A DNA stretch of 63,494 nucleotides, counting the filler, from Folioceros fuciformis (lineage: Eukaryota), in assembly GCA_049999805.1 (NCBI GenBank). It is 9 parts of 8 records of this genome, joined end to end, with 100 filler letters (N's around TTAATTAATTAA, not from the genome) between each part and the next. Parts side by side here need not be neighbours in the genome. Positions count along the whole stretch, not along the records: positions 29,032 to 39,188 come from JBNGIO010005561.1; 8 more parts are not named here. The stretch is one strand, 5' to 3'. This document shows, in pieces, positions 5,148 to 56,480 of this stretch. The position numbers were made by a program, and so were the translations under genes. The number at the start of each line of letters is the position of its first letter. The first letter of the stretch is position 1. The notes below the pieces were generated by a model. The model searched no databases, was not told the DNA's origin, and saw nothing but the letters and a program-made list of their open reading frames with translations.

Positions 5148-6400
5148 CTAGTCTCTCTTCCAATTCGGGAATTCCAGCCAGGGATCCACGCAGTGAATGC
5201 TGTCTATCCGAAAGGATCCTTTGTAGGGACAGGAGGGAAGCCACCTCCAAGCCAAGGGCGTTTGTCTGAAATCGACGACCGCGACCTTGTCCAGGTTGTC
5301 GTACATGATATAGAGTTCGTCCCGTCCCCCAACGACCCGGATGTGCCGAGACAATTCGTACCAGAACAGGGAACGATGCGAAGCTTTGCTCATGAATTCC
5401 TCCAACATGTCATCGGGCATGACACCCACGATGACCCAAGCCAAGGTCGCGAAATCGAGTTGCCGTATCTCCAATCTCCTTTGACCATTCCACCCCCAGG
5501 CCTCCCTGCCGTCGCCCAAGGACAAGAGGTAGTCCCGTATTCCAATGACGCTGGGGTTGCGTATAAAGAAATAAATAGGCTTGACCACATTCAACCGACC
5601 CCACCTAACCCGCTCTAGGTCGAAGTATTGCACACCCCAGTCCCCGTTATGGAAGTATAGCACGGTGTCGATAAACACTCCCTGTTGAGTGGAGAGGATC
5701 CCGGCCGCGGGCAAGAAAGGGAACGCCTTATGCCAACTCCCCACCGTGGAATCGAAGACAAATGTAGCCGCTGATTCCCTACACGCTAGATCCAAAGGAT
5801 GCATCCGGCCGTCGCGCACCCCTACCACCTTGAAGCATAGCGCTGTGGCGTCCACGAAGACGCCTCGCACATCCCCCACCCGCAGAGGAACCGGGAGCTC
5901 CGGTAGCCTGGCCCATGAGCTGGTCAAGGGGTTACCAACGTAGGTCAAGTCCAAAGGTCCACCCGGCGCGCTCTGCCTGACGCACGCAAGCACGCCACCT
6001 CCAAGAGACACCGAGGCCACGTGTCCCTGCGGGCAGGTTTGCATCCATATGGGCAGCTGGGATTGGTACCATCTATCCAAGGCAGGGTCGTAATGCAGGA
6101 TGTGGCGCCGGAATCACCGTAGCCCGTCACGAACATCATCCATTGGTCCGGCACACCTCCTCGAGATGCTAGCCGCTCCCGCGAAAAGTAGGGCGACGCT
6201 ACCACCTCCTCGCAAGCCTGCTTCCAAGCTTTGCACGCAGCAGACGACCGCAACAGGCTCACCAGCGGCAGCTTCACCAGGATCTGCGCCACGACGTCGT
6301 CAGGGAGCTTGCCTTTGCTCCACTCCAAGACAGCCCCCTGCGCATCGGCATCCACACCCGCATCCTCGTGGGACCCTTCCTCCGCCGGTAGGGCTAACAT
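5148..6400 (-). pseudogene. Intronless F-box / kelch-like beta-propeller gene with one frameshift at ~6092
   Basis: F-box KLPDDVVAQILVKLPLVSLLRSSAACKAWK in ORF 5945-6400; the frame switches to YDPALDRWY...VGNPLTSSWARLPELP...VFDSTVGSW...GVFIDTVLYF in ORF 5148-6080, typical of plant F-box/kelch-like proteins. Confidence 0.8.
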
Positions 6401-6678
6401 CGCAAGCCACTGAAGTTTAGGGTATAGGCGAACCGGCCCCTAAAACAACGGTCCAACTCTGTCGGTTATATGGATTGAAGACACAATTAATGTTGGTTCA
6501 ATGGATTGAAGTATACGTGCATGGACTTCCAATCAGGACCGGAATTTCGCTTTGGCATGCATCCAAGGATCCACTTCCGCCACCCCTTACGGAAGTGAGA
6601 TGCAATAAAGCAGGAAAGGATATTTTATTGACGAGCACTTGGGCTATTTATGCAATGCACTCACGGCGGGTATTACTA

Positions 6679-7213: not shown

Positions 7214-7257
7214 NNNNNNNNNNNNNNNNNNNNNNNNNNNNNNNNNNNNNNNNNNNN

Positions 7258-7269
7258 TTAATTAATTAA
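7258..7269. other. Artificial gap linker TTAATTAATTAA in N-runs (also at 12902, 28976, 39233, 43362, 46237, 51662, 56273)
   Basis: Identical 12-mer with stops in all six frames, centred in 100-bp N blocks; assembly artefact. Confidence 0.95.
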
Positions 7270-7313
7270 NNNNNNNNNNNNNNNNNNNNNNNNNNNNNNN
7301 NNNNNNNNNNNNN

Positions 7314-10017: not shown

Positions 10018-12857
10018 AATATATCGGCTATCTGCTCGTCTGTGTTGACATACACAAGATCAATAGCTCCAGATAAAATCCTTTCTCGAAGAAAATAATA
10101 ATGTACCTCAATGTGTTTCATCCTGGCATGAAACACTGGGTTTCGCGCCAACTATATGCTGCTAAGATTGTCACAGTAGATAACAACCTTGTCGTTGACC
10201 TGCAATCCAAAATCTCCGAGTAACTTACAAATCCAAGTCACTTCACACGCTGCTATTGCTGCGGCTCTGTATTCAGCTTCTGTACTAGACAAATCCATTG
10301 TACGCTGCTTCTTGCTACTCCATGTTATTGCTGTACTCCCAAGTGAAAATATGAATCCACTTGTAGATCTACGATCCATAATACTGCCTGCCCAATTTGC
10401 ATTTGTGCACCCACACAAGTTTATGTCTGAATCTGCAGCATAAAAGAGAGCATGATCCATAGTTGCCTTCACATAGCGCAACGTTCGCCTTACAGCATCC
10501 AAATGTGGCTTTCTTGGCACCTACAGAAACTGACTCTGCAGTCCCACTGTATAGTTTAAATCTGGTCTGGATAGAGTGAGATATATCAAGCTACCCACAA
10601 TCTCCCTGTACACTGTTGGATCTTCAAGTGCTTCACCATCATGAGCACTGAGCTTCAGATTTTGATCCAAAGGAATCGAGATTGGCTTGCACTCAACCAT
10701 ACCATACTTAGTTAGTACATCCAACACATACTTCCGCTGTGACAGCCAAATGCCTGTGTTGGTTCGTATAATTTCAATGCCCAAGAAGAATTTCAGTTCA
10801 CCTAGGTCCGGCATGTTGAACTCTTGTTGCAGAAGTTCCTTGATCTGCTCCACTTGATCCAATTGATTACCTCCAATGATTAGATCATCCACATAAATGA
10901 TCACAAAGACCAGTCCTTTTGTACTTCTGCACACATACAACGAATGATCCGCATCTGCCATGTTGAATCCGATGTGAATCAAATGCTGAGCAAGACGCTC
11001 ATGCCAAGCCCTCAGGGCTTGCTTCAGTCCGTACAACGTTTTTTTCAGCTTGCATACATGATTTGGATGATCCAAATCCTCATAACCTGGTGGCTAGTCT
11101 ATGTATACTTTGTTGAGTTATCGAGCTCTATATGAGCTAAACTCATGTGGTGTTAGTTATCCCAGTTGGGTTCATACTAGACTAGTTCTAGTTATTAGTG
11201 AACTTAGGATAGTGTAGATTATCCCATATTGAACCTGGAAGTTGTGTAGCCCTAAATGTACTACTTAAATGGAGACCTCGGACCTCCATAGTAAGACAGT
11301 GGTGATGTGTATTGTTTTCATGGTTGTGATCACCAATACCACCCTCTCTTCTCTCCTCTCCTTTCCTACACTTGCACGTAGATTGGAGTCGATCCTATTG
11401 ACATACTTCTTCCAGCAATTCTCCATGTAAGAATGCATTCTTCACATCCATATGATGTAGGACCCAACCTTTCGATGCTGCTAGTGCGAGCACGGTTTGA
11501 ATTGTTGCCATTTTGGCAACTGGACTGAACGTCTCCTCAAAATCTATTCCATATGTCTGGGCATATCCCTTGGCCACAAGCCTTGCCTTGTACCTGCTGA
11601 CACTACCATATGTGTGGTGTTTGACCTTGTACACCCATTTGCAACCTATTGGTTTCTTGCCTTTAGGTAGTTGTACTAGGTCCCATGTTGCATTATGATC
11701 TAATGCATTCATTTCTTCATCCATGGCATGTTCCCACTTTGTGTCTCCAATAGCTTCTTCAAAGCTCCTCGGTTCTACATCTTGCACAACCTTTGCCATA
11801 TAGGCACGGTGCCTAGCTACATAGCTATCATAGGTCAACCGCTATATTGGAACCTTGCGCCTTCCAGATCTCCGTGGGATTGAACCACTTCCAGGGGCTG
11901 ATTGAACCTCTTTTGCAACGAGTGTTTCGATTTTCGGTACATCGAATTCCTCATCCAAGCTCTGCTCAGAGTCGCTTGAATCATATGCACCTGCACTCAG
12001 GTCTAGTATCTTTGAATCCTGGACTTTTTCCTTCCCTTTGCGAGACACAGCTGTGGAGCTCATAGGGCTCACACTACCTCGCAACCTGCCACTCCATGGA
12101 TTCTGAACATTTGTCGAGTTTGATGACGCTTGTGGTCCACTCAACACTTGTGATTGTTGACTTGCATTGCTTGTTACCTCAGTTTCATGCACATCAGCAA
12201 CACCACTTGCTTGTACTTCAAAGTACCATCTAGCCATTTCATCAAAGACTACGTCTCTGCTTACTCTCATAGCTTGTGTATTGGGATTGTAGCATTTATA
12301 TCCTTGCTGTGTAAAAGAATACCCAATGAAGACACACTTTCTGCTTTTGGATCAAGCTTAGTCCGCAACTCATCCGGAATATGGACATAAGCAATGCAAC
12401 CAAATACCTTTAAGTGTGACAAGTCAGGTTTCTTCCCTGTGAACTTCTCCTTCGGTGTTACACTGTGCACCGCTGCCTTGGGAGTTCTGTTCATGATGTA
12501 CACTGCTGTGTTTACAGCTTCAGCCCAATAGTAGTGAGGCATCTGCTTCTCTGTCATCAATGCTCTCGCCACTTCTGCTATGTGCCTGTTCTTGCGCTCT
12601 GCAACTCCATTTTGTTGTGGCGTATAACGACATGAGTACTGCCGTTGAATGCCCTGTTCTGATAAGAATTTGCTGAACTCTCTGGAGAAGTACTCTCCCC
12701 CTCCATCAGATCTTAGGCATTTGATGTGCCTACCTGTCTGCTTCTCAACCATCGCCTTGAAAGTATGAAAATGAGTGATCACTTCACTTTTTTCTTTCAT
12801 GAAATAGACCCACACCTTCCTTGTGTGGTCGTCAATGAAGGTCACATAGTACTTGCA
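10018..12857 (-). mobile_element. Ty1/Copia pol fragment (integrase-RT-RNase H), degenerate
   Basis: rve LRSDGGGEY/PQQNGVAERKN (12267-12845); [11 protein letters not shown] and IIYVDDL; RNase H WSSKKQ...STEAEY. Confidence 0.92.
11111..11403. mobile_element. Solo LTR (293 bp) inserted in Copia RT
   Basis: TG...CA termini; 5-bp TSD tactt (11106-11110 / 11404-11408); near-identical inverted copy at 32418-32710. Confidence 0.92.
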
Positions 12858-12957
12858 NNNNNNNNNNNNNNNNNNNNNNNNNNNNNNNNNNNNNNNNNNN
12901 NTTAATTAATTAANNNNNNNNNNNNNNNNNNNNNNNNNNNNNNNNNNNNNNNNNNNN

Positions 12958-15384
12958 TTTGGATTCTAGTCGTGCCTGGTTTGCATCCCGACTTATGTGC
13001 TCCTGTAGTAGGGTTGCAATCATTGCACGGGCCTCTCCCCAATTGATGTGTTGTAGCTGTTGGCCACACTGAATGATGTTGCTCCACACTCCCAACGAAG
13101 TATCGTTACCTTGGCTTGTGGCATGTGCTCCTCGGGCTGCTTCCCAATTCTATGGGCTCCTTCTCCCCAAATCTGGTGCTCCACTGTGTGCTTGCACTAC
13201 TAGTGTCATCGCCAAATCCCCTACCTGGTACCCTACCTCAACTATTGGCTGGCTTGGTCCAGGATCCCTCACTGTCTCCATCTCAGTTGGGGCGGAATTT
13301 AGGGCTGCGGGGGTGGTGATTGATGGTAGCCTTCGGTCCCTTTGCTGCTCCCTAGGTCTTCGTATCAACGAGGTGTCATCTTCATCAGACTCATCATAGG
13401 CTGCCATGGCTGATTCGGAATCAAGTGGGGACTCCTCATCCGTAAGAGGGGTCGACACTCCACCGAAAATAAAAGCCTCCCCTTGCAACGGGACAACTAC
13501 AAAAGGTTGTTCCGCCTTCTCCAACTCCTCTTGTGTTAACAACCCTTCTGTCTTCCATAAGTGCACCAAGTAAGTCGAGAGGTAGCAAGGATGTGCACTC
13601 CCCCCCTCCCTACCGTTCGGCTTGAGCAACTTCTCCCTGTGGCAGGTATACGCCTCATACATAATTAACCCCCAGTCTGGCTTTGCTCCTTGAGTCACTC
13701 TCCAAAGGAAGTGGAGGAAAGCATTGCTGAAATATGAGGTGCGTTGATAGTTCACCAATCCAAGAACCACCTTAGTGAACAACCGCCATTTGAGCTCCTT
13801 GATCCTCTCAGTCCTCCACCCGTTCTTGGTTCTTGCTAACTCCCCTCCCAACAGCAATTCTAGTGTCCCAGATGGTAGGGTGGTGCTGGGTGACCTCCGC
13901 CCATCTATGGTTTTATCCAGGATCCCAATACCATCGCTCTCCTCTTCTGACCTACCGTACACCTGTCGGATGCTCCGGATAGTCCAACACCGAGGNNNNN
14001 NNNNNNNNNNNNNNNNNNNNNNNNNNNNNNNNNNNNNNNNNNNNNNNNNNNNNNNNNNNNNNNNNNNNNNNNNNNNNNNNNNNNNNNNNNNNNNNAAAAG
14101 CCTCCCCCTGCAACGGGACAACTACAAAAGGTTGTTCCGCCTTCTCCAACTCCTCTTGTGTTAACAACCCTTCTGTCTTCCATAAGTGCACCAAGTAAGT
14201 CGAAAGGTAGGAAGGACGTGCACTCCCCCCCTCCCTGCCGTTCGGCTTGAGCAACTTCTCCCTGTGGTAGGTGTACGCCTCATACATAATTAACCCCCAG
14301 TCTTTCTTTGCTCCTTGAGTCACTCTGCAAAGGAAGTGGAGGAAAGCATTGCTGAAATATGAGGTGCATTGATAGTTCACCAATCCAAGAACCACCTTAG
14401 TGAACAACCACCATTTGAGCTCCTTGATTCTCTCAGTCCTCCACCCATTCTTGGTTCTTGCTAGCTCCCCTCCCAACAGCAATTCTAGTGCCCTAGATGG
14501 TAGGGTGGTGGGTGACCTCCGCCCATCTATGGTTTATCCAGGATCCCAATACCATTGCTCTCCTCTTCCGACCTACCGTACACCAGTCAGATGCTCCGGA
14601 CAGTCCAACACCGAGGGTTAGTCCTCGCGTTTCGTTCAGGTAGGGCTTCCAACTCCTCCTTCGATTGCTGTAGGTTGGTATAGCACTCCTTCAACAAGCC
14701 TTCATGAACATACAACCAGTGTCTGAGTATTGTTGGAGGTCCACGCCATAATTGATGGAACAAAACCCCAAGAATGTCGGTTGCCCTCCTTTACGCGAGG
14801 TTATACCCCTACCTCCGTAGGCAACTGCTCCCAGCTTCTGTGCAGCTGATTTCACATCCCTTGCACCGTTCCTCCCTATGGCTCTCACCACAGCAAAGCC
14901 CTTTCTCTCTCTTTGAGTCCGCTTGGTCACAACAAGTAGGTCACCGACGTAGGTGTCTTGTCGCACAACTACTTCCTTATTCCCCGCTATGTAGGTAGAT
15001 GTAGTTCCCTACGTGGAGGTGAGCACCCTTCGTTGATGGGGCACCTTAGGTAGGGACCCCTTTAAATACCCTCTTGTCGTAGGGATACTTCTATATGTAG
15101 TAACTGCCCTTAATCGATACCCTACATAGGTGTCCCCTTTTCTGTAGGTAGCTTGCCCTTCACAACTATATTTCTTATTTAGGTACTACCTCCCACAGAG
15201 ATATCCTCCCTACGGTGGCATACCTCCCTATAGGTAGCCATCCCAAAGAAGGTAACTTCTTTATAATACTACCCCTTATTATCGCCACTCATCTAACCTA
15301 CCAAACCAAGACCAAACAAAACTGAAAATGTTATTAGCCGCTCTCTACCTACTGCGGGTACTTGCCAAAAACCCGCATTCCACA
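12958..15384 (-). mobile_element. Gypsy-associated segment: LTR-like terminus at 15384 plus a degenerate accessory ORF
   Basis: The TGTGG terminus (plus strand ...ttccaca, 15384) interrupts a Copia zinc-knuckle region; ORFs 13150-14121 and 13952-14482 share NGW / DWG / YL.HLW motifs with ORF 39794-40897. Confidence 0.6.
13471..14616. repeat. ~520-bp direct repeat flanking an assembly gap (13471-13995 and 14096-14616)
   Basis: Same sequence on both sides of the N-run, with scattered substitutions and small indels. Confidence 0.85.
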
Positions 15385-24715: not shown

Positions 24716-26039
24716 GTCATATAGCTTATAGGCCTTTGCCTCGTCTCCATAGCCAACAAATATCATAGGCTTGGCTCTGTCATCCAGCTTCTTACGTTTC
24801 TCTTCTAAGACATACACATAGGCTGGAGATCTGAAGACTTAAAGATGAAGAAGGCTCGGCTTCCTGCGCCAAATCACCTCAAATGGTGTCTGACCTACGA
24901 CAACACTTGTCAGAATGCAATTCATAATGTAAGTTGCAGTGACCACTACCTCTACCCAAAATGCCTTGCTCGACCCATACCATTCTAACATGCTTCTTGT
25001 CATTCCTAGCAGGGTCTGATTCCTTCTCTCAACAACATCGTTTTGCTGCTGGGTGTAAGGAACTATCAACTGCCTTACAATGCCATTGTCAAGTAGAAAC
25101 TGTGTGAAATGTGCATGGACAAACTCTGTCCCATTGTTTGTACGAAGACATTTCAACAGAAGTCCAGTCTGCCGCTGGATCATGACTAGCCACTCATGGA
25201 AGACATTGAAAGTATCAGACTTCAACCGAATCGGGTAGGTCCAGGAGTATCTAATGTAGTCATCTGTGATTATTAGGTAGTATTGTGCACCACCTAAACT
25301 GGGTATGTGGATTTTGCCAGAAATGTCAGCATGGACGAGATCAAGGACTTGAGATGCATGATGGGCAACAATTATAGGGAAAGGAACTTCGTTTTGTTTG
25401 GCTATTACACAGGCATCACGCAAAGGTAAGTCCTTAAAACATGTAGGCATGGGCTCTTAATAGCACGCTAGATTAGACATTTTTATCAGTTTATCCCGAT
25501 TAGCATGGCCTAGTCTAGCATGCCAAAGATTGGCCTCTGCAGCTTGGGAAGATTGGGCAACATGTACTATGATCTTGGCCAGCATCCACTTGAAGCTTGG
25601 GGTTCTGGCTTGCACATGCAGCATTTGTACCTGTATCTTAGTGTTGTTTCCCACTACTCTCCATGTCACAAATTGCAGCACAATCTGCTACAAGTGAGGA
25701 TAGTTCATGTCCAGAAAATGGAAGATTTTGATTCTAAGAGATTGCAGCAAAGAATTGCAGCAATCTGGGTTTGAAAGGAGCTACATGACACACGCAGCTT
25801 GGTGAGCATGGTGAGTCAGTTTGTTACACCATGAATTGCAACACTAGAATCAAAGGCACTAAAAACGTTCTTCATCCTAACTCCCAATTCTAGAGAACAC
25901 AAAAACATGGTTTGAGCTGCCTTCCCCAAGTTATAGCGCTGCGCGGCGCAACTTCAACAACTATCAACTTCTGCCCTGGCTGCCCCTTTTGCCTAGTGCC
26001 AGCCATCTTCACGATCCAGCGTCCAGCTGAGTTGGCTTC

Positions 26040-29000
26040 TGACATAAATGGAGAGCAGGAGAGAATTTGAATCATAAGGCAATACATTAACAAAATAATA
26101 ATAATTACAAAGTAATGTAAAGAGTGCATATTATCTATGCTAGGCATCTCTTCGCTAAAGTGACCTTTGAATAATTAAACTAAACTTAACTAACCACAAC
26201 TAACCGGGGGTGAACCCTAAGCGAGTGAGGTTACCCCGTGAACACCCTCCCTTAAGCAAAACAAGCTTAGGAATTATGACGGGACTGAACACGGGTTTTG
26301 CAAAGCAGGTGAGGACGACAACAAGGAGAAGATGGGCAAGCGAGGCTTAATGAGCAACACTCATCACTCAGAGAGGACGTGCGGCTGGAAAGTGTTGTTC
26401 AACGTGATCTTGTGCTGGACGAAACTCGGGAGAGAAGAAGAACTTAGGGATTGGATTAACTTCGAGCTTCATCCACCTGACCTGTTTTTCAGACTGCTAT
26501 AGTGTTGTGGTAGCTAACCCTTCCTGTCGCCTGATGGCAGGCACATAAGAACACAGAAGGAAGAGCTACACTTCACAATACTGAGGACCCAGGTCTCACC
26601 CGTAAGTCTTCTTTGCAGTAGGTTAAGCTGCGGGTTTGAAATAGGATTGAAAGTTTATCAGCCCAAGTGCCTGCATATGCTTCTGATGTTTATCCTTTGG
26701 CAGGGCCTTTGTTAGGATGTCTGCTGTGTTATTCTCAATAGGCACGTAGAGAATTTTAACTAACCCCCTCGTAGCAGCATCCCTAACATAGTGATGATGG
26801 ACTTCAATATGTTTCGTCCGAGCGTGGAAGCGGGGATTTGCAACAAGGACGATGGCTGATTGATTGTCACAGTAGAGGTGAGTAGGGCCATCTTGTGTTT
26901 GCCGAAGGTCATGTAAAAAAGACTGCTCCCATTCCACTTCCTAGTAGCATCTATAAGTGATTTGTATTCAGCTTCAGTGCTTGACAGGGCTATACTGGTC
27001 TGCTTTTTGCAGCTCCAGTTGATGGAAGCTTGGGCAAGGAGGAAAGCATAGGCGGACAAACTCTTACGGGAGTTACTATCCGATGCCCAATCAGCGTAAG
27101 TATGCCCTTCAAGAGTGAGTTGAGTGGTCTGGTGTGCTCCTCGTCTATAGCAGAGTCCAATGTAGGGCGAGCCTTTGAGGTAACGAAAAATACGTTTGAC
27201 AACAGTCCAGTGAGCACGACCAGGGTTATCCAAGAACTGGGACACTGTACTAACGGAATGTTGGATGTCAGGGCATGTCCAGTTGCTGACAAAAAGCAAG
27301 CAGCCAACAGCCTTTCGATAGGGGACATCCTACATGTCCAAGCAGTGAGCATCTGTAACAGGACACTCATATCGGGTAAGTTTAGCTCCTACAGAGCCTG
27401 GAGTAGAAGAGGGACGGGCTTGTCCCATGTTGAATTTGTGTAAGATTTCAGCAACATATTTGTGTTGATGGATAAGCCCCTCTGATTGAACTCGAAGCAC
27501 TTGTATCCCTAAGCAGAAAAGTAGATCACCACTGTCTGTCATTTCAAATGTTTTTCTTAACATATCCTTTACGTGTGACAGGATATGTTGGTTACTAGCA
27601 GCAAGGATCACGTCATCCACGTGTAGAGCTAGGATGACATAGGTGGTGCCTTCTCGGAAGATGTACACATTGGAGTCAGCTTCGCACTGTTCAAAACCCA
27701 AGGTTTTCAGGGCTGTGTCACACCTCTTATACCAGCGTTTTGCACTCTGTTTTAACCCATACAGGCACTTGATGAGTAAGCAAACATGATCTGGATGTGC
27801 AGGATCAACGTAACCTTCCGGCTACTCCATGTACAACTCCTCCTCAAGAATCCCATGGAGGAAAGCCGTGCAAACACCCATCTGCTGCAATTCCAGGTCG
27901 TACTCAGCAGCTAGGGCCAAGATAATGCGGATGGACTAAGCACGCACCACTGGAGAAAAAGTGTCCTGGTAATCTAAACCAGCAACTTGGGTAAACCCCC
28001 TGGCACACAACCTTGCTTTGTAACGGGATATGTGCCCGTCAACATTCAATTTGTGTTTAAACACCCATTTACAGGTGATAGCCTTTCTGTTTGCAGGTCT
28101 AGGAACCAGACGCCAAGTGCCATTTTTTATGAGGCTATTATACTCATCATCAACACCAAATTGCCATTTAGTTTTATCTGGGCCTGTCAAGGGCTCTGTA
28201 AGAGTAGCTGGCTCCAGAGGAACTGCAGGAGGAGAGGAGACAGTTGAAGTTGTAGGTCGTCGGAAGTCTATACTGGTATATGGAGGGTCCCTCCAGTCAG
28301 AAGGCAGAGAGGTTTGTGACGAGAAGAGCGACGGAGTCCAGCATCTTCATTTCAAGAAGGGTCATAGGCAATAGCAGGGGCAGGTATAGTCACGTCATCC
28401 ACAGCTGGTAAATCAACTGGCAAATTGTCTGGGGCATTTTCAATGTCTATATCTGCCTCTGCAAATAGGCCATTGAACCCTAATGGAGTAGGATCTATAA
28501 CTCGTTCTTCTGCTGCAACGGGGTGTGCAGCATCCTGGTCCTCATCAGCAACAGGTAGATGCTGAGCAGGGTGGACACCAGCAAGTTCATAGTTAGGTTG
28601 GTCCTGGTTCTCGGCTAGGAGATCAAGGATAGCAGGCCCGTCAGCATCCTTAGGATATAAGGATAGAAGACCTGTGGACCCTTCTAAAGCATTGGCTTCT
28701 TCTGTAGTGGATGATCGTTCGAAAGAGTCATGCTGAATAGCAACATGTGCAAATTGCAGAGACTCCACGAAAGTAATGCTCCGTGCCAGAATTGGTTGTA
28801 AAGTTGTAGGATCAATGAGCTTGTAGGCTTTTACAATTTCACTATAGCCAACAAAGACTAATGCTCTTGATTGGTTGCCTAATTTCCTGCATTTTTCTGC
28901 AGGAACATAAGCATAGGCTTTTGAGCCAAAGNNNNNNNNNNNNNNNNNNNNNNNNNNNNNNNNNNNNNNNNNNNNTTAATTAATTAANNNNNNNNNNNNN

Positions 29001-30896
29001 NNNNNNNNNNNNNNNNNNNNNNNNNNNNNNNCCAGTTACAGTTACCAGGGCGTTTGGAGGATGGACCAACATCACTGCGTTGTCCTTCATTGCGGGGACC
29101 CTGGTAGAAGCCCGGCTATGGTGGTATCCGCATTCTTCCTCTTTGTGCCCCTCGTCCACGGGAAGCAGTCAGGACTCTGTCAACTTTGGTTTTCCCAGAC
29201 CCTGACAAGAGCCCCTATCTCCTCGTCTAAGGTGAGAGTAATTTGTTGTCCTGCAACTCCGACAGCCCTAGCCTGTCGGATGGGGACATTGTGTGCAGAT
29301 ACAAAGTTCTGGTAATTAGGCGGAAGGCTGGTGAGCAATTTTGCAATCACGTCCACCTCGTCCATCACTGTACCAAGAGAGGTAAGTTGTGCTCTAAGGT
29401 GTCTAAGCTTGCTGGTGTGAGCAAGTACTTTGTCCCCTTCGTGCATTTTAAGTCCATAGAACTCCATACGCAAAGTACAAAGTGTAAGGACATTGTTTAT
29501 CCGATACTGACCCTCCAACTGTGCCTAGATTTCACTGGCCTTAGTGAGAAATTCGATCTGTGGAATAAGATCTTGAGTCAGGCCAGAGACAAGGAGAGCA
29601 ATACCAATGCTATTCGCATGAGCCCACTTATCTCTTTCTCCTGTGAGGGCTGTAACAGGAGGCTCTGGAATAGATCCATCTACTACTCCCCAAACTCCTC
29701 TAGCTAACAGAGTAGATTTCATGCGAACTCTCCACACCTCGTATTTCTGGCCATTAAACTTGTCATTTTCTTTTAATTCGGAAGTGAAGACAGTGGTAGC
29801 CAGCTAGGGGTGCAGGTGGTGATGGAGGAGGTGGGTTAATGCTAGTCATGGTAGTAGGATAACCTGGGCGTGTGTTTAGGGCGGGTGTGTTAAGGGCTAT
29901 TTGGTCAGCACCGAAGAGATTGACTTATCAAGATATGTGCCTGTGCAAGAGAAATGAACAGGCATGGACTAGGAGAAAGAGGCATCAATAAGACACCAAG
30001 AGACATGGCAGCACCGAAACGGTAAAAAAACTAGAAGACCTAACTTCCAAGGGGTCTACCAGTTCACAGGATTTGGACATCAATGTGAAAAACCCTAACT
30101 GCCAAGGGGTACACCGGTTCACATGAGTTCGACATTCATGAGAAAACCCTAACTCGTTTGTGCATCCGACTTTCTAGGAGTGGGCAACAAGGTTGGAAGA
30201 TACAATCCCATGGCTGGCTGTCTGTAGGGTTACGGCGACTACGCCTACGATGAGGCATGCTGTAGAAAAAGTGCAGCAATCATGTCTGAAATTATTCAGA
30301 CATTGTAATTGACAGTTGTGTGCTCCTAGGAGGAGCAATATGGGCTTGAGTATAGTTCCAAAATTATTTAGAAATAATTGTGTGACTTTGCTGAAGTCCC
30401 TATTGTTCTTCCTCTGCAACAGTGTCAGCTTTTGTTCTCTTAATAAATTAATAATTGGAATAACTGAGATTCCATATATGATTTTGTAGAAAATCTCTCA
30501 TGCTCCAATGCAGCGGAATTTAGTAGGATCGGAGGTTAAAAACCAGTCCTGTCCAGAATCTGAGGTCCAACCTTTGTAAAACTTTAATGGCAACATAGTC
30601 ATAGTTGCCATCAAATGTGAGATGATGCCAGTACATGCTTGAGTCTCGTTATCATTCACACATAATCATAAAGAGCCTTGCTCTGATACCATAACATAAA
30701 TGGAGAGCAGGAGAGATTATGAATCATAAGGCAATAAATTAACAAAATAATAATAATTACAAAGTAATGTAAAGAGTGCATATTATCTATGCTAGACATC
30801 TCTTCGCTAAAGTGACCTTTGAATAATTAAACTAAGCTTAACTAACCACAACTAATCTGGGGTAAACCTTAAGCGAGTGAGGTTACCCCGTGAACA
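26040..30896 (-). mobile_element. Ty1/Copia element with both LTRs (26040-26244 and 30692-30896), central gap
   Basis: 205-bp LTRs with about 10 mismatches by eye; TSD gcttc (26035-26039 / 30897-30901); PBS 30680-30691; PPT complement ccctccctt 26245-26253; gag 29180-29737; RT/RNase H 26623-28190. Confidence 0.95.
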
Positions 30897-31303
30897 GCTT
30901 CACGCCCTTGCATCAGCATTGCTCCTTCCATGATGCCTTGCTAGTGTACCCTAAATTCTGTTGTTTTCCCACGTTGGGCACAGGGTTACACCAACAACAA
31001 GTTGGAAATACCCAACATGTGTTCCAACTCAACTTGCCTAAAAACATCTAGCTATTTCTAAGCTAGTTTGCAAAATATCTAGCTAAGCTAGGTTCATTTA
31101 TCCTAGCATTGGTTTACTTAAGACATATATTTGCTATCCTATTCTAAACAACATTGGCTGAGGGTTTCTTACCTAATCGGCAGTCACCATCGTGACAACT
31201 GTTGTGCGAGGGCAATGTTGTGATGAGTCGAGTCGTGATCCTGGCCAGCATCCACTTGAAGCTTGGGGTTCCGGCTTGCACATGCAGCATTTGTACCTGT
31301 ATC

Positions 31304-32116
31304 TTAGTGTTGTTTCCCACTACTCTCCATGTCACAAGTTGCAGCACAGTCTTCTGCAAGTGAGGACAATCCATGTCCAGAAAATGGAAGATACTGATTC
31401 CCCCCCCCCCTAGCTGATTGTGCCATAGTTACAGCTGGTGTAGCACAGCAAGGGCAGTACCAAAGGTGCTCAAGAACCTCCGAGAGAGGTGGATTGAGAC
31501 AAAACAAATGGTAACCACCATTGCAGTGGTCACAAAGTAGCATCAACTCAGCGTCGTCAATCCTCCGGCATACCTGGCATGGGAAATCTCGAGGAGGAAT
31601 CCAATTGGCGGTGACGATGGTTGGGTCCAGGTTAGGAAGGTGGCAGGGCGCGCAATTCTTGATATGGTCTGTGATGGTGTGCCCATTTGACCCTTGCAGT
31701 AGCAAGATCCCATTTGGTCGGACCTCCCTTACTCGCAACACGTGACGGCTGCTGACAATGTCCAAAGTGTCTCTTATTTGCCGTTGCAAGTATACGAAAT
31801 CCCCCACTGGAAATTTCTTCAGTTTGGGTCTGAAACTACCACTGCGAGTGTATGCATACCGCAATGTGTCCCGGTGTTGTGCAATGTGGAGATTGGCCAT
31901 TGCCATGGACATCATTTGCCTGAACAATGCAGCCCTCTCACCAATAGCACATGCCCAAGCAGCAGGATCATCCAGATCCAAAACTTCTGCCATGTGCTTG
32001 GCAATAGCACTGGGCAGTATGGGCTCCCTCCAAAACAGCAAAAAGTAGGGACTGAAGTGAGCTAAGGAGGCATGTCTGCTGAGCCTGTACCCCATGGCAA
32101 TGTATGGTAGGGCCAA
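31304..32116 (-). CDS. Gypsy integrase C-terminus with PHD finger (fragment of decayed pol)
   Basis: FSPYFLLFWREP, FPVGDFVYLQ, then C4HC3 pattern CQVC...LLCDHCNGGYHLFCLNPPL...WYCPCC. Confidence 0.88.
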   Translation of the reverse strand: MALPYIAMGYRLSRHASLAHFSPYFLLFWREPILPSAIAKHMAEVLDLDDPAAWACAIGERAALFRQMMSMAMANLHIAQHRDTLRYAYTRSGSFRPKLKKFPVGDFVYLQRQIRDTLDIVSSRHVLRVREVRPNGILLLQGSNGHTITDHIKNCAPCHLPNLDPTIVTANWIPPRDFPCQVCRRIDDAELMLLCDHCNGGYHLFCLNPPLSEVLEHLWYCPCCATPAVTMAQSARGGGNQYLPFSGHGLSSLAEDCAATCDMESSGKQH

Positions 32117-32417
32117 ATCCCCCTATGTCTTGGGCATCCATAAGCATAGTTTCCTCAGCCCCTTCTTGATATTTGCACCAAACTCTCTGCGAGACCATCG
32201 GCTCGGGGGTGGTCTCGACTAGTCCTGCGATGGTCAATCAATGTTGCATCCAGTAGATCTTGGAATTCTCCTCGGAATTCAGAGCCCTGATTTGTCAAGC
32301 ACTCAGCACAACTTCCCAAGCGTGCCAGCACATTCTAAAGGAAAGCCTACGCTGTGCTTCTAGATGTCTTATCAGGAAGGGCCACTACTTTGATCCACTT
32401 GCTGAAATGCTCCATCA

Positions 32418-32710
32418 TGTCAATAGGATCAACTCCAGTCTACGTGCAAGTGTAGGAGAGGAGAGGAGAGAAGAGAGGGTGGTATTGGTGATCACAACCA
32501 TGAAAACAATACACATCACCACTGTCTTACTATGGAGGTCCGAGGTCTCCATTTAAGTAGTACATTTAGGGCTACACAACTTCCAGGTTCAATATGGGAT
32601 AATCTACACTATCCTAAGTTCACTAATAACTAGAACTAGTCTAGTATGAACCCAACTGGGATAACTAACACCACATGAGTTTAGCTCATATAGAGCTCGA
32701 TAACTCAACA
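32418..32710. mobile_element. Solo LTR (293 bp) in Gypsy integrase; same family as 11111-11403, inverted
   Basis: TG...CA termini; TSD catca (32413-32417 / 32711-32715). Confidence 0.92.
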
Positions 32711-34398
32711 CATCATAACAAGCACGTAGACATTGCCCCTTGGTGTACGAGGGAGTTCCCCAAGCAGGTCACAGGACCACCAAAAGAATAAACCCATGAT
32801 GGGCAAAGGCTGTAGCTATCGATTCTGAATGTTGAAGGTGGTCTTAACTCTATCACACTCCACACAACAAGCCACTTGTTGCTTCACTCGGGCATGCATC
32901 CCGTACCAATGAAAATGTGGAACCAAGAGGCTGTAGGTCCTTTTGACACCAAAGTGACCCATGTCGTCATGGACTTGACGAATCAACTGCTCCCTCTCAG
33001 CTGGTGGAGGCACAAGACGTTCCCCTCCGTTACCCAACCTTCGCAGCAAGTAGTTGTCTCGCCAGTAGTACAGCTCAGCACATTGACGGATGCGCTCCTG
33101 GACTGCTGGCTTTAGTGACGTGTCCATTTGTTCAGTTTGCACAAAGTGCAAAGTCTCAACATCCTCCCAGATGTCCTTGGGCCTGGTAGTACTTGCATTA
33201 ACCTCCAACTGTCCCAAGCATATCATGGCCACTAGGGCTGCCACATTAAGACCCTCTGCCTCATCGCTATCCAAATCCTGTCGGGCTGCGGTTACATCAA
33301 CATGACTGTCTAGGATTCCTGGACAAGGTGTCAGCATTCTGGTGTTTCATGCCGAGCCTGTGCACCACATTGAACTCATAATCTTGCAGGATCATAGCCC
33401 ATCTTGCCAACTTACCATTGAGCTTGGTGTTCATCATCAGCCACTTGAGAGGCTGGTGATTTTGTCACCAATGTAAAGGGCTTCCCAAACATATAAGGGC
33501 GGAAATGGCAAACAGCCCACACGGTCGCTAAGCATTCCCCATGGTAACTGCTGTAGTTGGCCTCCACACGGTTATTGCTGCGGGATGCGTAAGCTATAAT
33601 GCGCTTGCGTCCCTCTTCATCTAGCTGTGTGAGGACAGCCCCAAGCCCCAGCACACTCTAGTCTGTGTGCACCACAAAGGCCTTGGAAAAATCAGGTCTA
33701 GCCATCACAAAGGCCGCGATTAGCTGAGCGTTGAGCATGTCAAAGGCCTCCTGTGCAGCAGCTATTCAGCTCTAGTGCACATCCTTGTGCAGTAGATCAT
33801 TCAATGGCTTTGCAATTCAGCTAAAACTCTAAATGTATACCCTGTAATAGTTGCATAAGCCCAAGAAAGCCCTCAATGTTGAAACATTGGTTGGCTCCTT
33901 CACTTGCCGAATGGCCTGCACCTTGGCTGAATGTGGCATTACCCCCTTTGGCACAATTCAATGTCCCAAAAAAGCCACAGTATCCATGCCAAATTCACAC
34001 TTGGCAGGATGGCAAGTCAAGTTTGCCTTGCGCAGTTGAATGAATAGATCCTCAAGGTGCTCCAAGTGACTCTCAAAGTCTAGGTTGTGCACCAACACGT
34101 CATCAATGTAGCATATCATGTGTGCAGATCTTGCTAAGACCATGTCCATCACCCGTTGAAACGTCGCCAGTGCATTTTTAAAGCCAAAGGGCATCACAAG
34201 CCATTCCCATAGCTATCAAGAGCCCAAGAAAGGCTGTCTTCTTGATGTCCTCCTCTACCACCGGGACTTGGTTGAATCCTTGCCGGAGATCCAATATGGA
34301 GAAAAACATAGAATTGTCGATGCTGTCGAAGATTTCCTCAAGAGTTGGCATGGGATATCGGTCTTGGGCAGTCACAGCGTTGATGGGACGATAGTCCC

Positions 34399-34647
34399 TG
34401 TCGGGTTTTAGATGCTTAGGCAGCGAGCACGAGAGCGAGATGCAAAGACTTAGAATAATGTCATCGTCTTCATAGTCACAGGAACGCGTTACATAGTGTA
34501 TATAATAACCGCTAACCGTTTCTACCTTCATGCGCGCGTGCAGGCAGCCGCGGCATGAACGACTAACTGTTTAGCCCTAAACTAAACCTGGCCGCTATAC
34601 AAATATAAATAAAATTCAAAGTGAGGGTTGCATTACGCTCCCCAACA
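34399..34647. mobile_element. Solo LTR (249 bp) in Gypsy RT
   Basis: TGTCGGG...CCCAACA termini; TSD gtccc (34394-34398 / 34648-34652); removal restores EKRMCGDYRP. Confidence 0.92.
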
Positions 34648-35180
34648 GTCCCCACACATTCGCTTCTCTGTCCACATTCCATTGCTATCCTTCTTCGGAG
34701 GCATGACTGTTGCTGCAGCATAATCTGAGCTTGAGGGATGGGTAAGCCCAGCCTCCAGCAACTCCTAGCATAGTGCGTCCACCATCTCCCACTCTGTTTG
34801 GCTGAGCCTCTAACGCCGCCTATAGATGGGCTCATCACTGGTCAACTTGATGCGGAAGACAATCACATTGCAACGTTTCAATTCCTTCATGGAGAAGGCA
34901 AAACAGTCCTTGTATTTCAGCAATAGACTGCGAACCTGAGCCTGCTGCTTGCTTGTGAGCTTGGGTCCCATGGTCAAGAGAAACTTCTCAGTGGAAGGGC
35001 GTGGCTTGTGCTCAGGTCTTGCACTCCATGCACAGTCCCCCTCTAAACTTGAGACCAAAAAAACAGGCTNNNNNNNNNNNNNNNNNNNNNNNNNNNNNNN
35101 NNNNNNNNNNNNNNNNNNNNNNNNNNNNNNNNNNNNNNNNNNNNNNNNNNNNNNNNNNNNNNNNNNNNNAGCCAGTATGA

Positions 35181-35617
35181 TCATGTAGTGTGGCTAGGGA
35201 ATGGGAGATGATTAGCATCTGCAGTACAAGTGTGGGAGAAATGGGGGACATGGCGAGGACCTGTGCGAGACATGAGTTGAAAGGCCAGGTAGATGCTGAC
35301 CAACCATGTCACTACATAAAGATCCATAACACGGCCCAAGTCTAAGCACCGCTGCTGAACTGTGACTTGCGGTGCTGCTGTAGAATGGGTGTGAAAACCC
35401 ATCACTTGCTCCCGTTCCTCCACAGTGGGTTCCTCCCACTGCTGTGTGTCAGTGTTCAACAACATGCCAGCTCCCTGCCCTCTATATGCATGAGAGCTGG
35501 GATAGCTCACCAGCGTAGAAAGGGTACTACGTGGCTGTCCTGGGACGTTGGTGCTGTACCAGGGCTTCCTCTCAACAGCACGGACAGGACGGGGCTGGTG
35601 ATTGTTGTCCAGGACTG
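35181..35617 (-). pseudogene. C-terminal fragment of a cytosine-5 DNA methyltransferase (TRD end, motifs IX and X) in the retrotransposon polyprotein
   Basis: EREQVMGFHTHSTAAPQVTVQQRCLDLGRVMDLYVVTWL aligns without gaps to the DNMT3 C-terminal pattern E.E.vfGF..H.T.........R...LGR.....V...L; the N-terminal part is cut off by the Copia insertion at ~35618. Confidence 0.75.
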
Positions 35618-37803
35618 TGACCAAGCTCAAGGATGAAACCATATAAATAATTATATAGAGTCCAGTACTTAGGTTAGTAGATGAGTTAACAAACCTGATG
35701 CTCAAGCATCGTTACAGTTGTAACCATTTTTCTTGGCTGTCACATACATGTCGTGGTCAAAGACTTAACAATCTAATGATCCTATTCGTGTTATGGTATC
35801 AGAGCGGGATCTACGCTGATCTATCATGTCTGCAATTGCGGCAACTACACTAATCCTACTGCCTATTACGGAGTATGGGAGAACTGTGTTCTTGATCAAC
35901 AATAGTTGGCCAAGAGACGCACCAGCAGTGGTCTGGGAGATGATTCGTGCATATTGCTTCTCAGACGTGAGGATCAACAGGAGCGACCCGTTCTAATTCC
36001 CACTCGAACCGCGTCCACCTGGTTATCTGCATCTCTGCACTCCGGCCTAGCATGGGACACTGGAACCTGCATACAAATGCGCTTTAGGAGCACTTCTTGG
36101 AGTAATGTCATGCAGTTTCATGGTGCACCACGCCCGGCTTACGCAGAAGGGAGCGCCTAGTTAGGCGTGCACTGAGGCTAGTGATTATCTCTGAGTACAC
36201 TCGCCGGCGTGAGAGGAATTATCAAGAGATGCTTGCACCTAGAAATAGGTGGCAACAAGTCTAGATTAGGGTCTGCATAATCTTGGAATTGATGGCAACA
36301 AATATCGTTCAAGGTTTTGAGCCAAATGATGGATGTGATTGGAGCTGTGTGGATATTACAGACATTTACCTATAGCTGGAGATGTCAACCTCGTCTGAGT
36401 CCACCTTTGTCATCAGCTTACCTGCAACACCAGAGTATGTTTTTCACATTATTCTAGGCACATTAGTGAGATTGTTTAGTCTTCAACTAGTAACCCCTAC
36501 GTACAATTACATATATTCTTATGCAAGTCATGTGGTGGACAAGCTGCATTCTGAATTATGCTTTGTAGAGTCAATTGATATACTCATGTCCTTAGAAGTA
36601 GAGAGTCCACTTCATGCACCTTCCTCCTGCAAGGCAAGATTCCATCCCATTTCATGAGTCTCTTCCTATATAGGTTAGAGTCATGACAGGGCAGCAGCCC
36701 CCAACACCTCTTGCCTTGGCCAAGGAGGACAAGTTTGATGGAGAAAACTTCAACCTATGGAAGTTCAGAATGGAGGAGCTGCTGAAATCAAGGGACCTTT
36801 GGGAGTACGTAGGTGCAGCAGTCATCAAAGCTGAACCACCAACATCTGCGCCCACTGACGAGATTGCAGCATGGAAAGCTACAAACCAACAGGCCAAGAG
36901 CACGCTCACCATGAGTGTAAAGAGCTCTCATTTTGCCACTTTGATGGGATCCATAACATTTGCAGCAACACTGTGGAAGCAGCTATTAGAAGTTTATGAT
37001 GTAGCTGATCTTATGCTCAAAACTCACACGCTTAAATCATTTGTGGGATTAAGGATGTTGGAGACAAACAAAGTGGCAGAGTTTATACTTATATGGAGAA
37101 GCTCGCAGACAAGTTCAGTGCACTTGGCTTTACACTTGACGAGGAGGTGATGGCGGTCATTCTCTTGTCACAACTGCTTGAAACTTGGATAAATGTTGTC
37201 CAGTCCCTGCAAAATGTAGCAGCCATCACGGTTAACCATGTTATCTCCACGATGCTTACCGAGGAGAATCGCCGGAAGATGGCCACATCTTCCATAGCTA
37301 CAGGGGACAAAGCCCTGTTCACCAATAAATTTGGTCTAGGCAGAGGCAGGGGAAGAGGTAAGCCAACATTCAAAGGCAGTGGCCGTGGCCAAGGCTTCCC
37401 AACTCAACCATCCTCATTTAACTCAAACAGACCAAAGCCACTTTGCGGCTACTGTGGGATCCCAAACCACACATGGGATGTCTACAGAAAAAGATTGGCA
37501 AACGAGTTAGGAGGCAGACACATAGGCAGCAACCTGGCTGTAACCATGAAGAAATACTCAAAAGCATTTACAGCATGTGTCCAGCATGAAGCATAAGAAG
37601 CTACACATGACAAGAGTATTTCAGCACTTGTGGTCACGTGCTATGCATCAAAACCTGAACATGCATGGTATATTGATTCCGAGGCCTCCCAACACATTAC
37701 CCCTCATCACTCCTACTTTACTAATCTGCAGCCAATACAAGAGGAGAGATATGTATGTTTAGGAGATGATACAACTCACAAAATAGAAGGACAAGGTACC
37801 ATA
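35618..37803 (+). mobile_element. Ty1/Copia element, 5' part (LTR ~35618-35793, PBS 35794-35805, gag, protease)
   Basis: TGGTATCAGAGC PBS; gag KFDGENFNLWKFRMEELL (36683-37150, frameshifted into 37093-37596 with degenerate knuckle CGYCGIPNH); protease-like WYIDS at ~37666. Confidence 0.9.
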
Positions 37804-39188: not shown

Positions 39189-39793
39189 NNNNNNNNNNNN
39201 NNNNNNNNNNNNNNNNNNNNNNNNNNNNNNNNTTAATTAATTAANNNNNNNNNNNNNNNNNNNNNNNNNNNNNNNNNNNNNNNNNNNNTGATTAGGGAAC
39301 AGGCCAGTTGTGGACTTAGGCAAAAGTAAGGGCCGAGACGACGGGGCGACGGTAGCCGGCAGGGCAACCGTCGCCGGAGGGACGACTGGTAGTAGCCCGA
39401 TGGGCAGTAAGGAGAGAAAGCAGGCAGGGCATAGAAACCCTAGAGAAAGGGGAGCTTTGTACAGCATCCGAAAGCGCGGGGAGCGGGAGTAACTTGAAGC
39501 GTGAAGTGGCTGAAGGAGGAGAAAGCGCCAGGACGATGGGGCAGACAGCGCAGGGCGTGAGGGTTGAGCAGGCACAGGGGAGTGGGAGACCTCCAAGGCG
39601 CGAGCGGTGGAGAGAGTTGGGCGAACAGAGGAAGAGCCAGAGCGTGACCAGGACAGAAGAGTTCCGAGCCCGAGCGTGAGGGGAGGAGGACAGCCAGGAT
39701 GAGGTCGCGGCCTGAACTGATCCCCGGAGCAGTAGCCTCTAGACAGGGGGGGGACCTCCTGTCCCCCGAATCGACCTACTCCTGTGGCCCAAT

Positions 39794-43317: not shown

Positions 43318-43417
43318 NNNNNNNNNNNNNNNNNNNNNNNNNNNNNNNNNNNNNNNNNNNNTTAATTAATTAANNNNNNNNNNNNNNNNNNNNNNNNNNN
43401 NNNNNNNNNNNNNNNNN

Positions 43418-46192: not shown

Positions 46193-46292
46193 NNNNNNNN
46201 NNNNNNNNNNNNNNNNNNNNNNNNNNNNNNNNNNNNTTAATTAATTAANNNNNNNNNNNNNNNNNNNNNNNNNNNNNNNNNNNNNNNNNNNN

Positions 46293-51617: not shown

Positions 51618-51717
51618 NNNNNNNNNNNNNNNNNNNNNNNNNNNNNNNNNNNNNNNNNNNNTTAATTAATTAANNNNNNNNNNNNNNNNNNNNNNNNNNN
51701 NNNNNNNNNNNNNNNNN

Positions 51718-56228: not shown

Positions 56229-56480
56229 NNNNNNNNNNNNNNNNNNNNNNNNNNNNNNNNNNNNNNNNNNNNTTAATTAATTAANNNNNNNNNNNNNNNN
56301 NNNNNNNNNNNNNNNNNNNNNNNNNNNNGATCAAGTCCGACCCTCCATCCACAGCAGCAAGGAACCCCATCGCTCCTTCGTGGGAACGAAACCCAATGTC
56401 TCAACGACAGTGGGATAAGTGTGGCCACTAAAGGTGGGACCCGTCGGCAATCAGTGCCCGGGGTTTTGCCTCCACATTTT

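Follow-up and report, generated by a model that had tools for sequence, protein, structure and literature searches.

A dead Ty3/Gypsy copy in Folioceros fuciformis and its probable place in a green-lineage retrotransposon family joining a DNMT3-like methyltransferase and an integrase-borne PHD finger

Retrotransposons bringing their own DNA methyltransferase (DNMT) are rare, with dinoflagellates and a single charophyte as their recorded hosts. In KnitGypsy-Dnmt3 of Klebsormidium nitens, a Gypsy Pol is accompanied by a Dnmt3-like DNMT (de Mendoza 2018, PMC5890265). The same paper assigns the repeat order A-coding-B-A-B to DIRS elements and, in its Fig. 4c legend, to KnitGypsy-Dnmt3, and proposes that retrotransposon DNMTs methylate new copies. 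The locus considered here lies in a 63,494-nucleotide stretch of DNA from Folioceros fuciformis (assembly GCA_049999805.1), made of nine parts of eight records joined end to end and called the window throughout. It consists of the minus-strand remains of a Ty3/Gypsy-type retrotransposon, extending from ~35711 to 25570, with a PHD finger at the end of its integrase and a relic of a DNMT farther upstream.

Work of Perez-Alegre from 2005 is reportedly cited for PHD-bearing transposable elements of Chlamydomonas. The Chlamydomonas element Gypsy-7a_cRei is described as having a Gag-Pol with a PHD, for which a role in avoiding harmful insertions is suggested (bioRxiv 10.1101/2022.06.16.496473), and PHD fingers in retrotransposons are also treated in PMC6673714. 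An earlier sequence-only reading of this DNA had invoked PHD-bearing elements of the Fogey/Selgy type from Selaginella; these were not found in the literature searched, in which no paper pairs 'Selgy' with 'PHD'. The name KnitGypsy-Dnmt3 was found only in its original paper, and the literature retrieved, as far as its accessible text goes, reports no DNMT3-bearing Gypsy retrotransposon in bryophytes. According to an opinion article (PMC6338049), land plants such as tracheophytes lack transposon-encoded DNA methylases.

The window element is probably a dead Ty3/Gypsy copy of a green-lineage family that combines a DNMT3-like methyltransferase, a PHD finger and split terminal repeats, and in which the two domains would have the roles set out below. 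Its longest open reading frame (ORF), located at 31304-32122 on the minus strand, encodes a 272-aa product (P0001). Its first ~170 residues comprise the end of the integrase core and then a small SH3-like beta-barrel. The finger comes next. Residues 182-226 (31579-31445) follow the pattern CQVC-x11-CDHC-x4-H-x2-C-x14-CPCC, exactly as the sequence-only reading had given it, and match Pfam PF00628 with E 3.1e-10 and 40.3 bits for a cut-off of 24. The canonical C4HC3 ligand spacing is accompanied by a predicted local distance difference test (pLDDT) score above 90 over the finger in an AlphaFold model of P0001, built on an 81-sequence alignment and reaching a mean pLDDT of 83. The finger is not a chance motif because the zinc ligands (8/8) are invariant in the 81 relatives aligned and the C4HC3 pattern is kept in 215 of 239 related proteins. 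As the ORF is contiguous with the integrase core and the barrel, the PHD is confirmed to occupy the integrase C-terminus, the position held by the chromodomain in chromoviruses, where it had been placed from the start. No Pfam match to a chromodomain was obtained in the window ORFs, and the precomputed domain lists of 111 relatives do not include PF00385.

The PHD ORF remains open over 272 aa in an element that is otherwise broken, and some relatives, e.g., from Sphagnum and Calypogeia, are annotated as host 'hypothetical proteins'. Both facts would fit an exon of a host gene, or a domesticated fragment, abutting a retrotransposon. Such an origin is extremely improbable since the ORF begins inside the integrase core without a start codon context of its own, and the same module is joined to reverse transcriptase (RT), RNase H and integrase in more than 200 relatives. 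In addition, the ORF runs via the G-run into the terminal repeat: residues ~235-272 are a read-through of the G-run and of repeat B1, with pLDDT below 50, and this tail is unstructured in the model.

The retrotransposon family in question was delimited by a search among longer proteins, giving 111 matches, and by an exhaustive search giving 314 cluster representatives at E<1e-30. The 111 longer homologues are nearly all annotated with rve and PHD, many of them also with RT and RNase H, and seven carry a precomputed PF00145 or a source name including C-5 cytosine DNA methylase. The best match of P0001 is a protein of the liverwort Calypogeia fissa (68% identity), other named homologues being from Klebsormidium nitens, Sphagnum magellanicum and Volvox reticuliferus. 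The C-terminal region preserved in the DNMT relic and the PHD ORF were both matched in 70 of 239 gathered proteins, and the Sphagnum record P0043 includes methyltransferase fragments and a PHD.

Two domain orders are found among the 78 proteins spanning RNase H, integrase and PHD. The DNMT is located between RNase H and integrase in 41 of them (type A) and upstream of RT in three (type B: P0015, P0034 and P0128), to which a profile search added P0218, for four type-B proteins in all. It was undetected in 34 of the 78; the profile search then found one between RNase H and integrase in P0150, P0189 and P0215, and many of the remaining proteins begin too close to RT for a DNMT to show. The window copy is classed as type B because its RNase H-integrase gap of ~50 residues leaves no room for the domain and the relic lies upstream, spaced as in P0015.

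Metagenome contigs, when scanned, gave 80 loci that are 56-70% identical at the protein level. In 31 loci, the match is preceded by at least 3.6 kb of sequence, and 28 of these loci carry a DNMT-homologous region on the same strand. Once repeat assemblies are merged, 24 distinct copies are left, of which 22 have the DNMT; the two devoid of it (L041/L049 and L050) break off either upstream of the integrase C-terminus or inside RT. In most loci, the DNMT ends ~2.6 kb before the match. Pfam PF00145 is present in L012 (E 2.3e-8), L065, L011 and L078, and an aspartic protease lies upstream of the DNMT, which gives for this clade the order gag-protease-DNMT-RT-RNase H-integrase-PHD.

Four distinct copies, L027, L060, L075 and L076 (with L077 and L074 identical to the latter), display the full layout A1...B1-A2-B2. 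Segment A, of ~300 bp, stands at the 5' end and is repeated at the 3' end between two B copies of ~180 bp; a G-run immediately precedes the first B, and the outer termini are TGTCATG...CACGACA. In all four, DNMT and PHD both lie between A1 and B2. The family joins a DNMT3-like methyltransferase and a PHD within single repeat-bounded copies. The sequence-only reading had united the two domains in one retrotransposon and staked this on their sharing a single copy bounded by long terminal repeats (LTRs). Its claim holds for the family, as these four copies contain both domains, but the bounding repeats are split direct repeats, complete relatives having no paired identical LTRs; for the window itself, the claim reaches only as far as a C-terminal DNMT relic.

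This relic corresponds to positions 403-527 of the 643 positions of a profile made from ten relatives (E 1e-37), whereas positions 1-402 gave nothing anywhere in the window in a profile search with all filters off. It is without motifs I, IV, VI and VIII, by which an active C5 methyltransferase is recognized, and its tblastn matches are residues 56-173 of P0015, 139-279 of P0034 and 1021-1131 of P0059. PF00145 was matched neither in the 126 window ORFs of at least 100 aa nor, with E values up to 1 admitted, in the 25 minus-strand ORFs that the element region contains at a minimum length of 30 aa. A relic of motif IV had been suspected by eye near 36060; it was not supported by the unfiltered profile search and was dropped. 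In relatives, the DNMT profile shows ELFGG (motif I), xCQ (IV), IEN (VI), HRLRNFWTN (VIII), ERE..GY (IX) and GR.MD (X). When the DNMT of L012 was compared with all solved structures, the first 29 rows were DNMT3A, 3B or 3C, with a best E of 3e-4. The family DNMT resembles DNMT3 by sequence, in agreement with the published Dnmt3 assignment.

It could be argued that the PHD and DNMT relics come from two elements juxtaposed by nested insertions or by an assembly gap. Indeed, a 100-N run (35070-35169) stands between them, the window is crowded with nested Copia and Gypsy fragments, and in most relatives the DNMT is elsewhere, between RNase H and integrase. This is nevertheless very unlikely, as strand, order and spacing are those of the intact relative P0015 (DNMT at 56-173, linker at 240-353, then RT), the distance of ~2.6 kb is constant in the 22 DNMT-bearing copies out of 24, and the short gap between RNase H and integrase, similar to that of the closest relatives (~50 aa), cannot house a DNMT. 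The window is also collinear with P0015 across the N gap, residues 173-240 of P0015 (201 nt expected) spanning 288 nt, Ns included.

A single element is thus retained, and it is a dead, 5'-truncated one, whose features are collected in Table 1. RVT_1, RT_RNaseH and Integrase_H2C2 occur in the order typical of Ty3/Gypsy; the integrase core, whose fragments gave no Pfam rve match, was located via tblastn to the rve regions of relatives. At least five frameshifts break Pol, seven tblastn pieces against P0015 alternate between frames, and in-frame stops separate several of the ORF pieces. The copy is regarded as dead because it is 5'-truncated, frameshifted and interrupted in its integrase core. 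It is devoid of the catalytic half of the DNMT, gag, the protease and the 5' repeat; the truncation is deduced from the lack of any gag, protease or DNMT N-terminal match upstream of 35711, tblastn of P0128, P0218, P0015 and P0034 having returned none in 22000-43000. A tyrosine recombinase, the hallmark of DIRS elements, was sought as a phage-integrase match and not found in the window ORFs or the relatives, which have a DDE-type integrase only. No tRNA was found in a scan of 25000-37000. The segment 34648-34989 was considered as a protease and rejected, since the protease of relatives lies upstream of the DNMT; it is the pre-RT linker.

Table 1. Features of the dead element and of the sequences inserted into it (positions along the window)
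Feature	Position	Strand	Evidence or remark
DNMT3-like methyltransferase relic, ~125 aa	35262..35636	-	inside ORF 35184-35711; target-recognition region and motifs IX-X
100-N run between DNMT relic and rest of Pol	35070..35169	.	read in sequence
Pre-RT linker of Pol	34648..34989	-	tblastn P0015 240-353, 46% identity
Reverse transcriptase, two frames	33961..34396	-	Pfam RVT_1 E 8.5e-17 and 5.7e-5; tblastn
RNase H, broken	33303..33765	-	Pfam RT_RNaseH E 9.5e-21, and RT_RNaseH_2
Integrase H2C2 zinc-binding domain	32840..33010	-	Pfam PF17921 E 1e-16, residues 113-169 of ORF 32819-33346
Integrase core, first part	32711..32815	-	upstream of solo LTR insertion
Solo LTR, 293 bp, in integrase core, foreign to the element	32418..32710	.	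TG...CA ends, 5-bp target duplication
Integrase core, second part	32123..32417	-	tblastn P0002 161-301; P0015 922-1012 (67% identity)
ORF P0001	31304..32122	-	integrase core end, SH3-like barrel, NCAPCH motif, PHD, read-through tail; model pLDDT 83
C4HC3 PHD finger	31445..31579	-	Pfam PF00628 E 3.1e-10; zinc ligands invariant in 81 sequences
G-run, eleven G, polypurine-tract-like	31401..31411	-	directly upstream of B1
Terminal repeat B1, 165 bp	31236..31400	-	93.3% identical to 25570-25734
Terminal segment A2, first part	30902..31235	-	between B1 and B2 as in relatives; cut by Copia
Nested Copia, foreign to the Gypsy element	26040..30896	-	205-bp LTRs 95.6% identical; Pfam gag, RT, SH3
Terminal segment A2, second part	25735..26034	-	read from Copia ends
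Terminal repeat B2, 3' end of element	25570..25734	-	pair of B1

The terminal part of the layout known from relatives is retained in the window, with the G-run, B1, a Copia-split A2 and B2, A1 having gone with the 5' end. B1 and B2 enclose ~640 bp of unique sequence. The Copia element that splits it is complete, with a tRNA-Met-type primer binding site (TGGTATCAGAGC) and a target duplication GCTTC, and its LTRs are more alike (95.6%) than B1 and B2 (93.3%), consistent with the later insertion expected of a nested element. The 293-bp insert of the integrase core is 99% identical, in reverse orientation, to 11111-11403, itself splitting a Copia RT. Both copies have TG...CA ends and each is flanked by a 5-bp target duplication; they have the appearance of solo LTRs from a family that was active recently. 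These ends and duplications rule out a miniature inverted-repeat transposable element, which had been considered for the integrase-core insert.

With regard to what the finger may bind, its best sequence matches among solved structures are KDM5D/Lid PHD1, WSTF, CHD4, KMT2D, BAZ2A/B and UHRF1/2, with ORC1b, ATXR5, PHF21A, DPF3 and AIRE as further top matches. Foldseek with the finger alone retrieved ATXR5 (0.9 Å), DPF3b (0.7 Å), BAZ2A (1.1 Å), MOZ and UHRF1. A complex with unmodified H3 is named in the titles of several of the matching entries, and these fingers prefer H3 unmethylated at K4, as known partly from those titles and partly from general background. The PHD thus resembles, in sequence and in its model, readers solved with unmodified H3 tails, which is a likeness only. 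When the two-domain shape is used, Tudor-PHD entries of UHRF1/UHRF2 and PHF1 rank first with low TM-scores. The tandem Tudor-PHD of UHRF1/UHRF2 and the Tudor-PHD of PHF1/MTF2 share with P0001 a small beta-barrel followed by a PHD and give the best fold matches to the complete model, but TM-scores are ~0.2, the two-domain root-mean-square deviation is large, and the barrel here is the SH3-like one of an integrase, so that the comparison is one of resemblance only.

PHD fingers are functionally diverse, and the finger could instead read H3K4me3, with insertions aimed at promoters, or have a non-histone role such as binding a protein partner, RING-like activity or DNA binding. Weak Pfam matches to RING-like and NSD variant PHD models in relatives point in this direction, as does TAF3, an H3K4me3 reader found far down the match list (E 1e-4). 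The PHD-bearing Gypsy-7a_cRei, as its preprint describes it, is inserted in intergenic DNA and untranslated regions, which would also suit another ligand. This alternative is rather unlikely given that the top matches in both sequence and structure are PHDs solved with unmodified H3 tails, that the position of the cage tryptophan of ING2/BPTF is non-aromatic here on a by-eye reading, and that an acidic DDAE precedes the third cysteine as in KDM5 PHD1.

An NCAPCH motif (P0001 residues 158-161, window ~31640-31651) lies ~20 residues N-terminal to the PHD. In the 81 sequences, its Cys160 is invariant and its His161 nearly so, and the motif may provide an additional metal or contact site joining barrel and finger. 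The relatives nearest to the window end at most ~10 residues past the last PHD cysteine. For the relatives whose finger is intact, the sequence following the PHD has a median length of 241 aa, whereas the window's clade ends directly after the finger. P0030, P0035 and P0046 extend ~250-300 residues beyond the PHD, with a conserved extension that includes a DPWCGTG-like stretch and corresponds to no Pfam family. P0046 is named from Volvox and typed A in the tree described below, and P0030 and P0035 are untyped.

The integrase-C/PHD region was used to build an unrooted tree of the window and 104 proteins, drawn from 221 with alignments of at least 200 residues and restricted to those with a typeable architecture or a species name. 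One side, of 25 rows, comprises the window, all four type-B proteins, 17 proteins with no domain lying between RNase H and integrase, and those of Calypogeia, Sphagnum and Klebsormidium. The other, of 80 rows, includes 69 type-A proteins, among them that of Volvox, and 11 without the domain. The split is supported by FastTree (98) and IQ-TREE SH-aLRT (94), with the K. nitens protein P0008 on the window's side (98 / 94), and a support of 99 unites the window with Calypogeia, Sphagnum and P0003. That the two Pol architectures fall on opposite sides of a branch suggests either a relocation of the DNMT within Pol or two separate captures.

A longer history can be sketched, as a possibility that is tentative and falls short of being probable. 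One ancient Gypsy lineage with DIRS-like split repeats, a DNMT3-type writer and a PHD reading unmodified H3 would predate the split of chlorophytes and streptophytes. The DNMT would have moved once within Pol, standing between RNase H and integrase on the chlorophyte side and between protease and RT on the streptophyte side, and the lineage would have persisted into land plants (liverwort, moss and the window), its active copies choosing H3K4-unmethylated chromatin and methylating their own DNA. If true, the lineage would contradict the printed absence of transposon-encoded DNA methylases from land plants, and the elements would silence themselves, a 'stealth' strategy by which methylation of the host could be seeded as well.

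As a mechanism, the PHD of active relatives would tether the integration complex to nucleosomes with an H3 tail unmodified at K4. It would thereby play the role of the chromodomain in chromoviruses and steer insertions off active promoters, as a safe-haven strategy, while the DNMT would methylate the new DNA of the element in line with the proposal of de Mendoza 2018. PHD and DNMT of the window's clade probably work as distinct portions of Pol and not as one protein resembling an ADD-methyltransferase. The window copy can perform none of these functions; it writes no methylation because its DNMT lost motifs I-VIII and the element is dead.

The opposite arrangement, in which PHD and DNMT form one reader-writer enzyme, either as an uncleaved Pol or as a DNMT-integrase-PHD product, would be comparable to the ADD-methyltransferase of DNMT3. 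The larger sister clade has the DNMT immediately N-terminal to integrase-PHD (41 of 78 proteins by BLAST, 69 of 104 typed tree rows), the family DNMT is DNMT3-like, and the class of PHD fits the H3K4me0 preference of the ADD domain, which reads unmodified H3. A single reader-writer polypeptide is nonetheless unlikely and is not implied for the window's clade, in which RT, RNase H and integrase intervene between DNMT and PHD. Of the ADD-plus-methyltransferase logic put forward in the sequence-only reading, there remains the closeness of the PHD to fingers solved with unmodified H3; the coupling itself meets these intervening domains and a window DNMT lacking motifs I-VIII. Likeness to ADD-methyltransferase may reasonably be kept as a 'works like' analogy only, one that would better fit the type-A clade with its DNMT directly before integrase-PHD.

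Several points weigh against placing the window copy in this family or against the roles proposed for it. The A...B-A-B layout is incomplete in the window, A1 being absent, and a nucleotide search of its B1, A2, B2 and of 35712-36673 against the 80 loci revealed no similarity. The ORF holding the DNMT relic has no Pfam match and is separated from the rest of Pol by the 100-N run. Every metagenome copy examined is degraded, the longest ORF being of 598 aa. In many family DNMTs, E, K, A or S replaces the Pro of the catalytic Pro-Cys motif, so that DNMT activity in the family is not assured. The H3K4me0 preference would follow from likeness to solved PHDs and, in part, from the specificities known for these. 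Finally, P0008 is partial and is tied neither to any DNMT-bearing copy nor to KnitGypsy-Dnmt3 itself.

Elsewhere in the window, two-part N blocks (44 N, 12 bases, 44 N) stand at 7214-7313, 12858-12957, 28932-29031, 39189-39288, 43318-43417, 46193-46292, 51618-51717 and 56229-56328, all eight inside retrotransposon sequence. Runs of 100 N occur at 13996-14095 and 35070-35169. The first is flanked by a 95%-identical direct duplication (13471-13995 and 14096-14616), which looks like an assembly artefact at a gap. On the plus strand, 56553-62678 encodes, without interruption, a 2042-aa Gypsy polyprotein that belongs to another lineage and shares ~30% identity with the PHD family, with ~950 residues between gag and RT that have no Pfam match. 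The sole coding signal seen outside transposable elements is a gene relic in two frames at 5151-6439 (minus strand), with an F-box and a beta-propeller (At3g26010-like); a search of its ORF against proteins of comparable length gave no homologue at E<=1e-5. For a Copia polyprotein, no match exceeded 36% identity.

Compared with DNMT3 and its ADD domain, the family is similar in that its DNMT best matches DNMT3A/B/C among solved structures and its PHD resembles readers of unmodified H3. The reader there is an ADD, whereas here it is a plain PHD carried by the integrase and, in the window's clade, set apart from the DNMT by RT, RNase H and integrase; the likeness is by analogy. With chromoviruses, the family shares the fusion of a chromatin reader after an SH3-like/GPY-F module at the integrase C-terminus and a presumed role in integration targeting. 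It differs from them in that the reader is a PHD and not a chromodomain, the direct repeats are split and a DNMT is present. The Chlamydomonas Gypsy-7a_cRei, likened here by description only, is similarly a green-alga Gypsy with a Gag-Pol carrying a PHD, and no DNMT is mentioned for it in the preprint text available.

KnitGypsy-Dnmt3 and the present family both have a Gypsy Pol with a Dnmt3-like DNMT and termini arranged A-coding-B-A-B. As far as the published text goes, a Gypsy-Dnmt3 with A-B-A-B repeats (Klebsormidium) and a PHD-bearing Gypsy (Chlamydomonas) are already in print. The combination of PHD and DNMT on one element is absent from the main text and three supplements of PMC5890265, where 'PHD' occurs 0 times. 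In that paper, the acquisition is treated as specific to the K. nitens lineage, whereas the family described here spans chlorophyte and streptophyte records; the window copy, for its part, is degenerate and without the catalytic half of the DNMT. To what was known of methyltransferase-bearing retrotransposons are thus added a charophyte-type family that regularly has a conserved, histone-reader-like PHD on its integrase, the large size of this family (314 protein clusters at E<1e-30), and relics in a moss record, a liverwort record and the window, whose nearest named kin are bryophytes. A natural reader, a writer and an integrase gathered in one mobile element would lend themselves to tests of chromatin-guided integration and self-methylation, for which the window copy is only a fossil. 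The interest lies at the level of the family, with its two domain orders, its wide range in the green lineage and its conserved reader-like finger.

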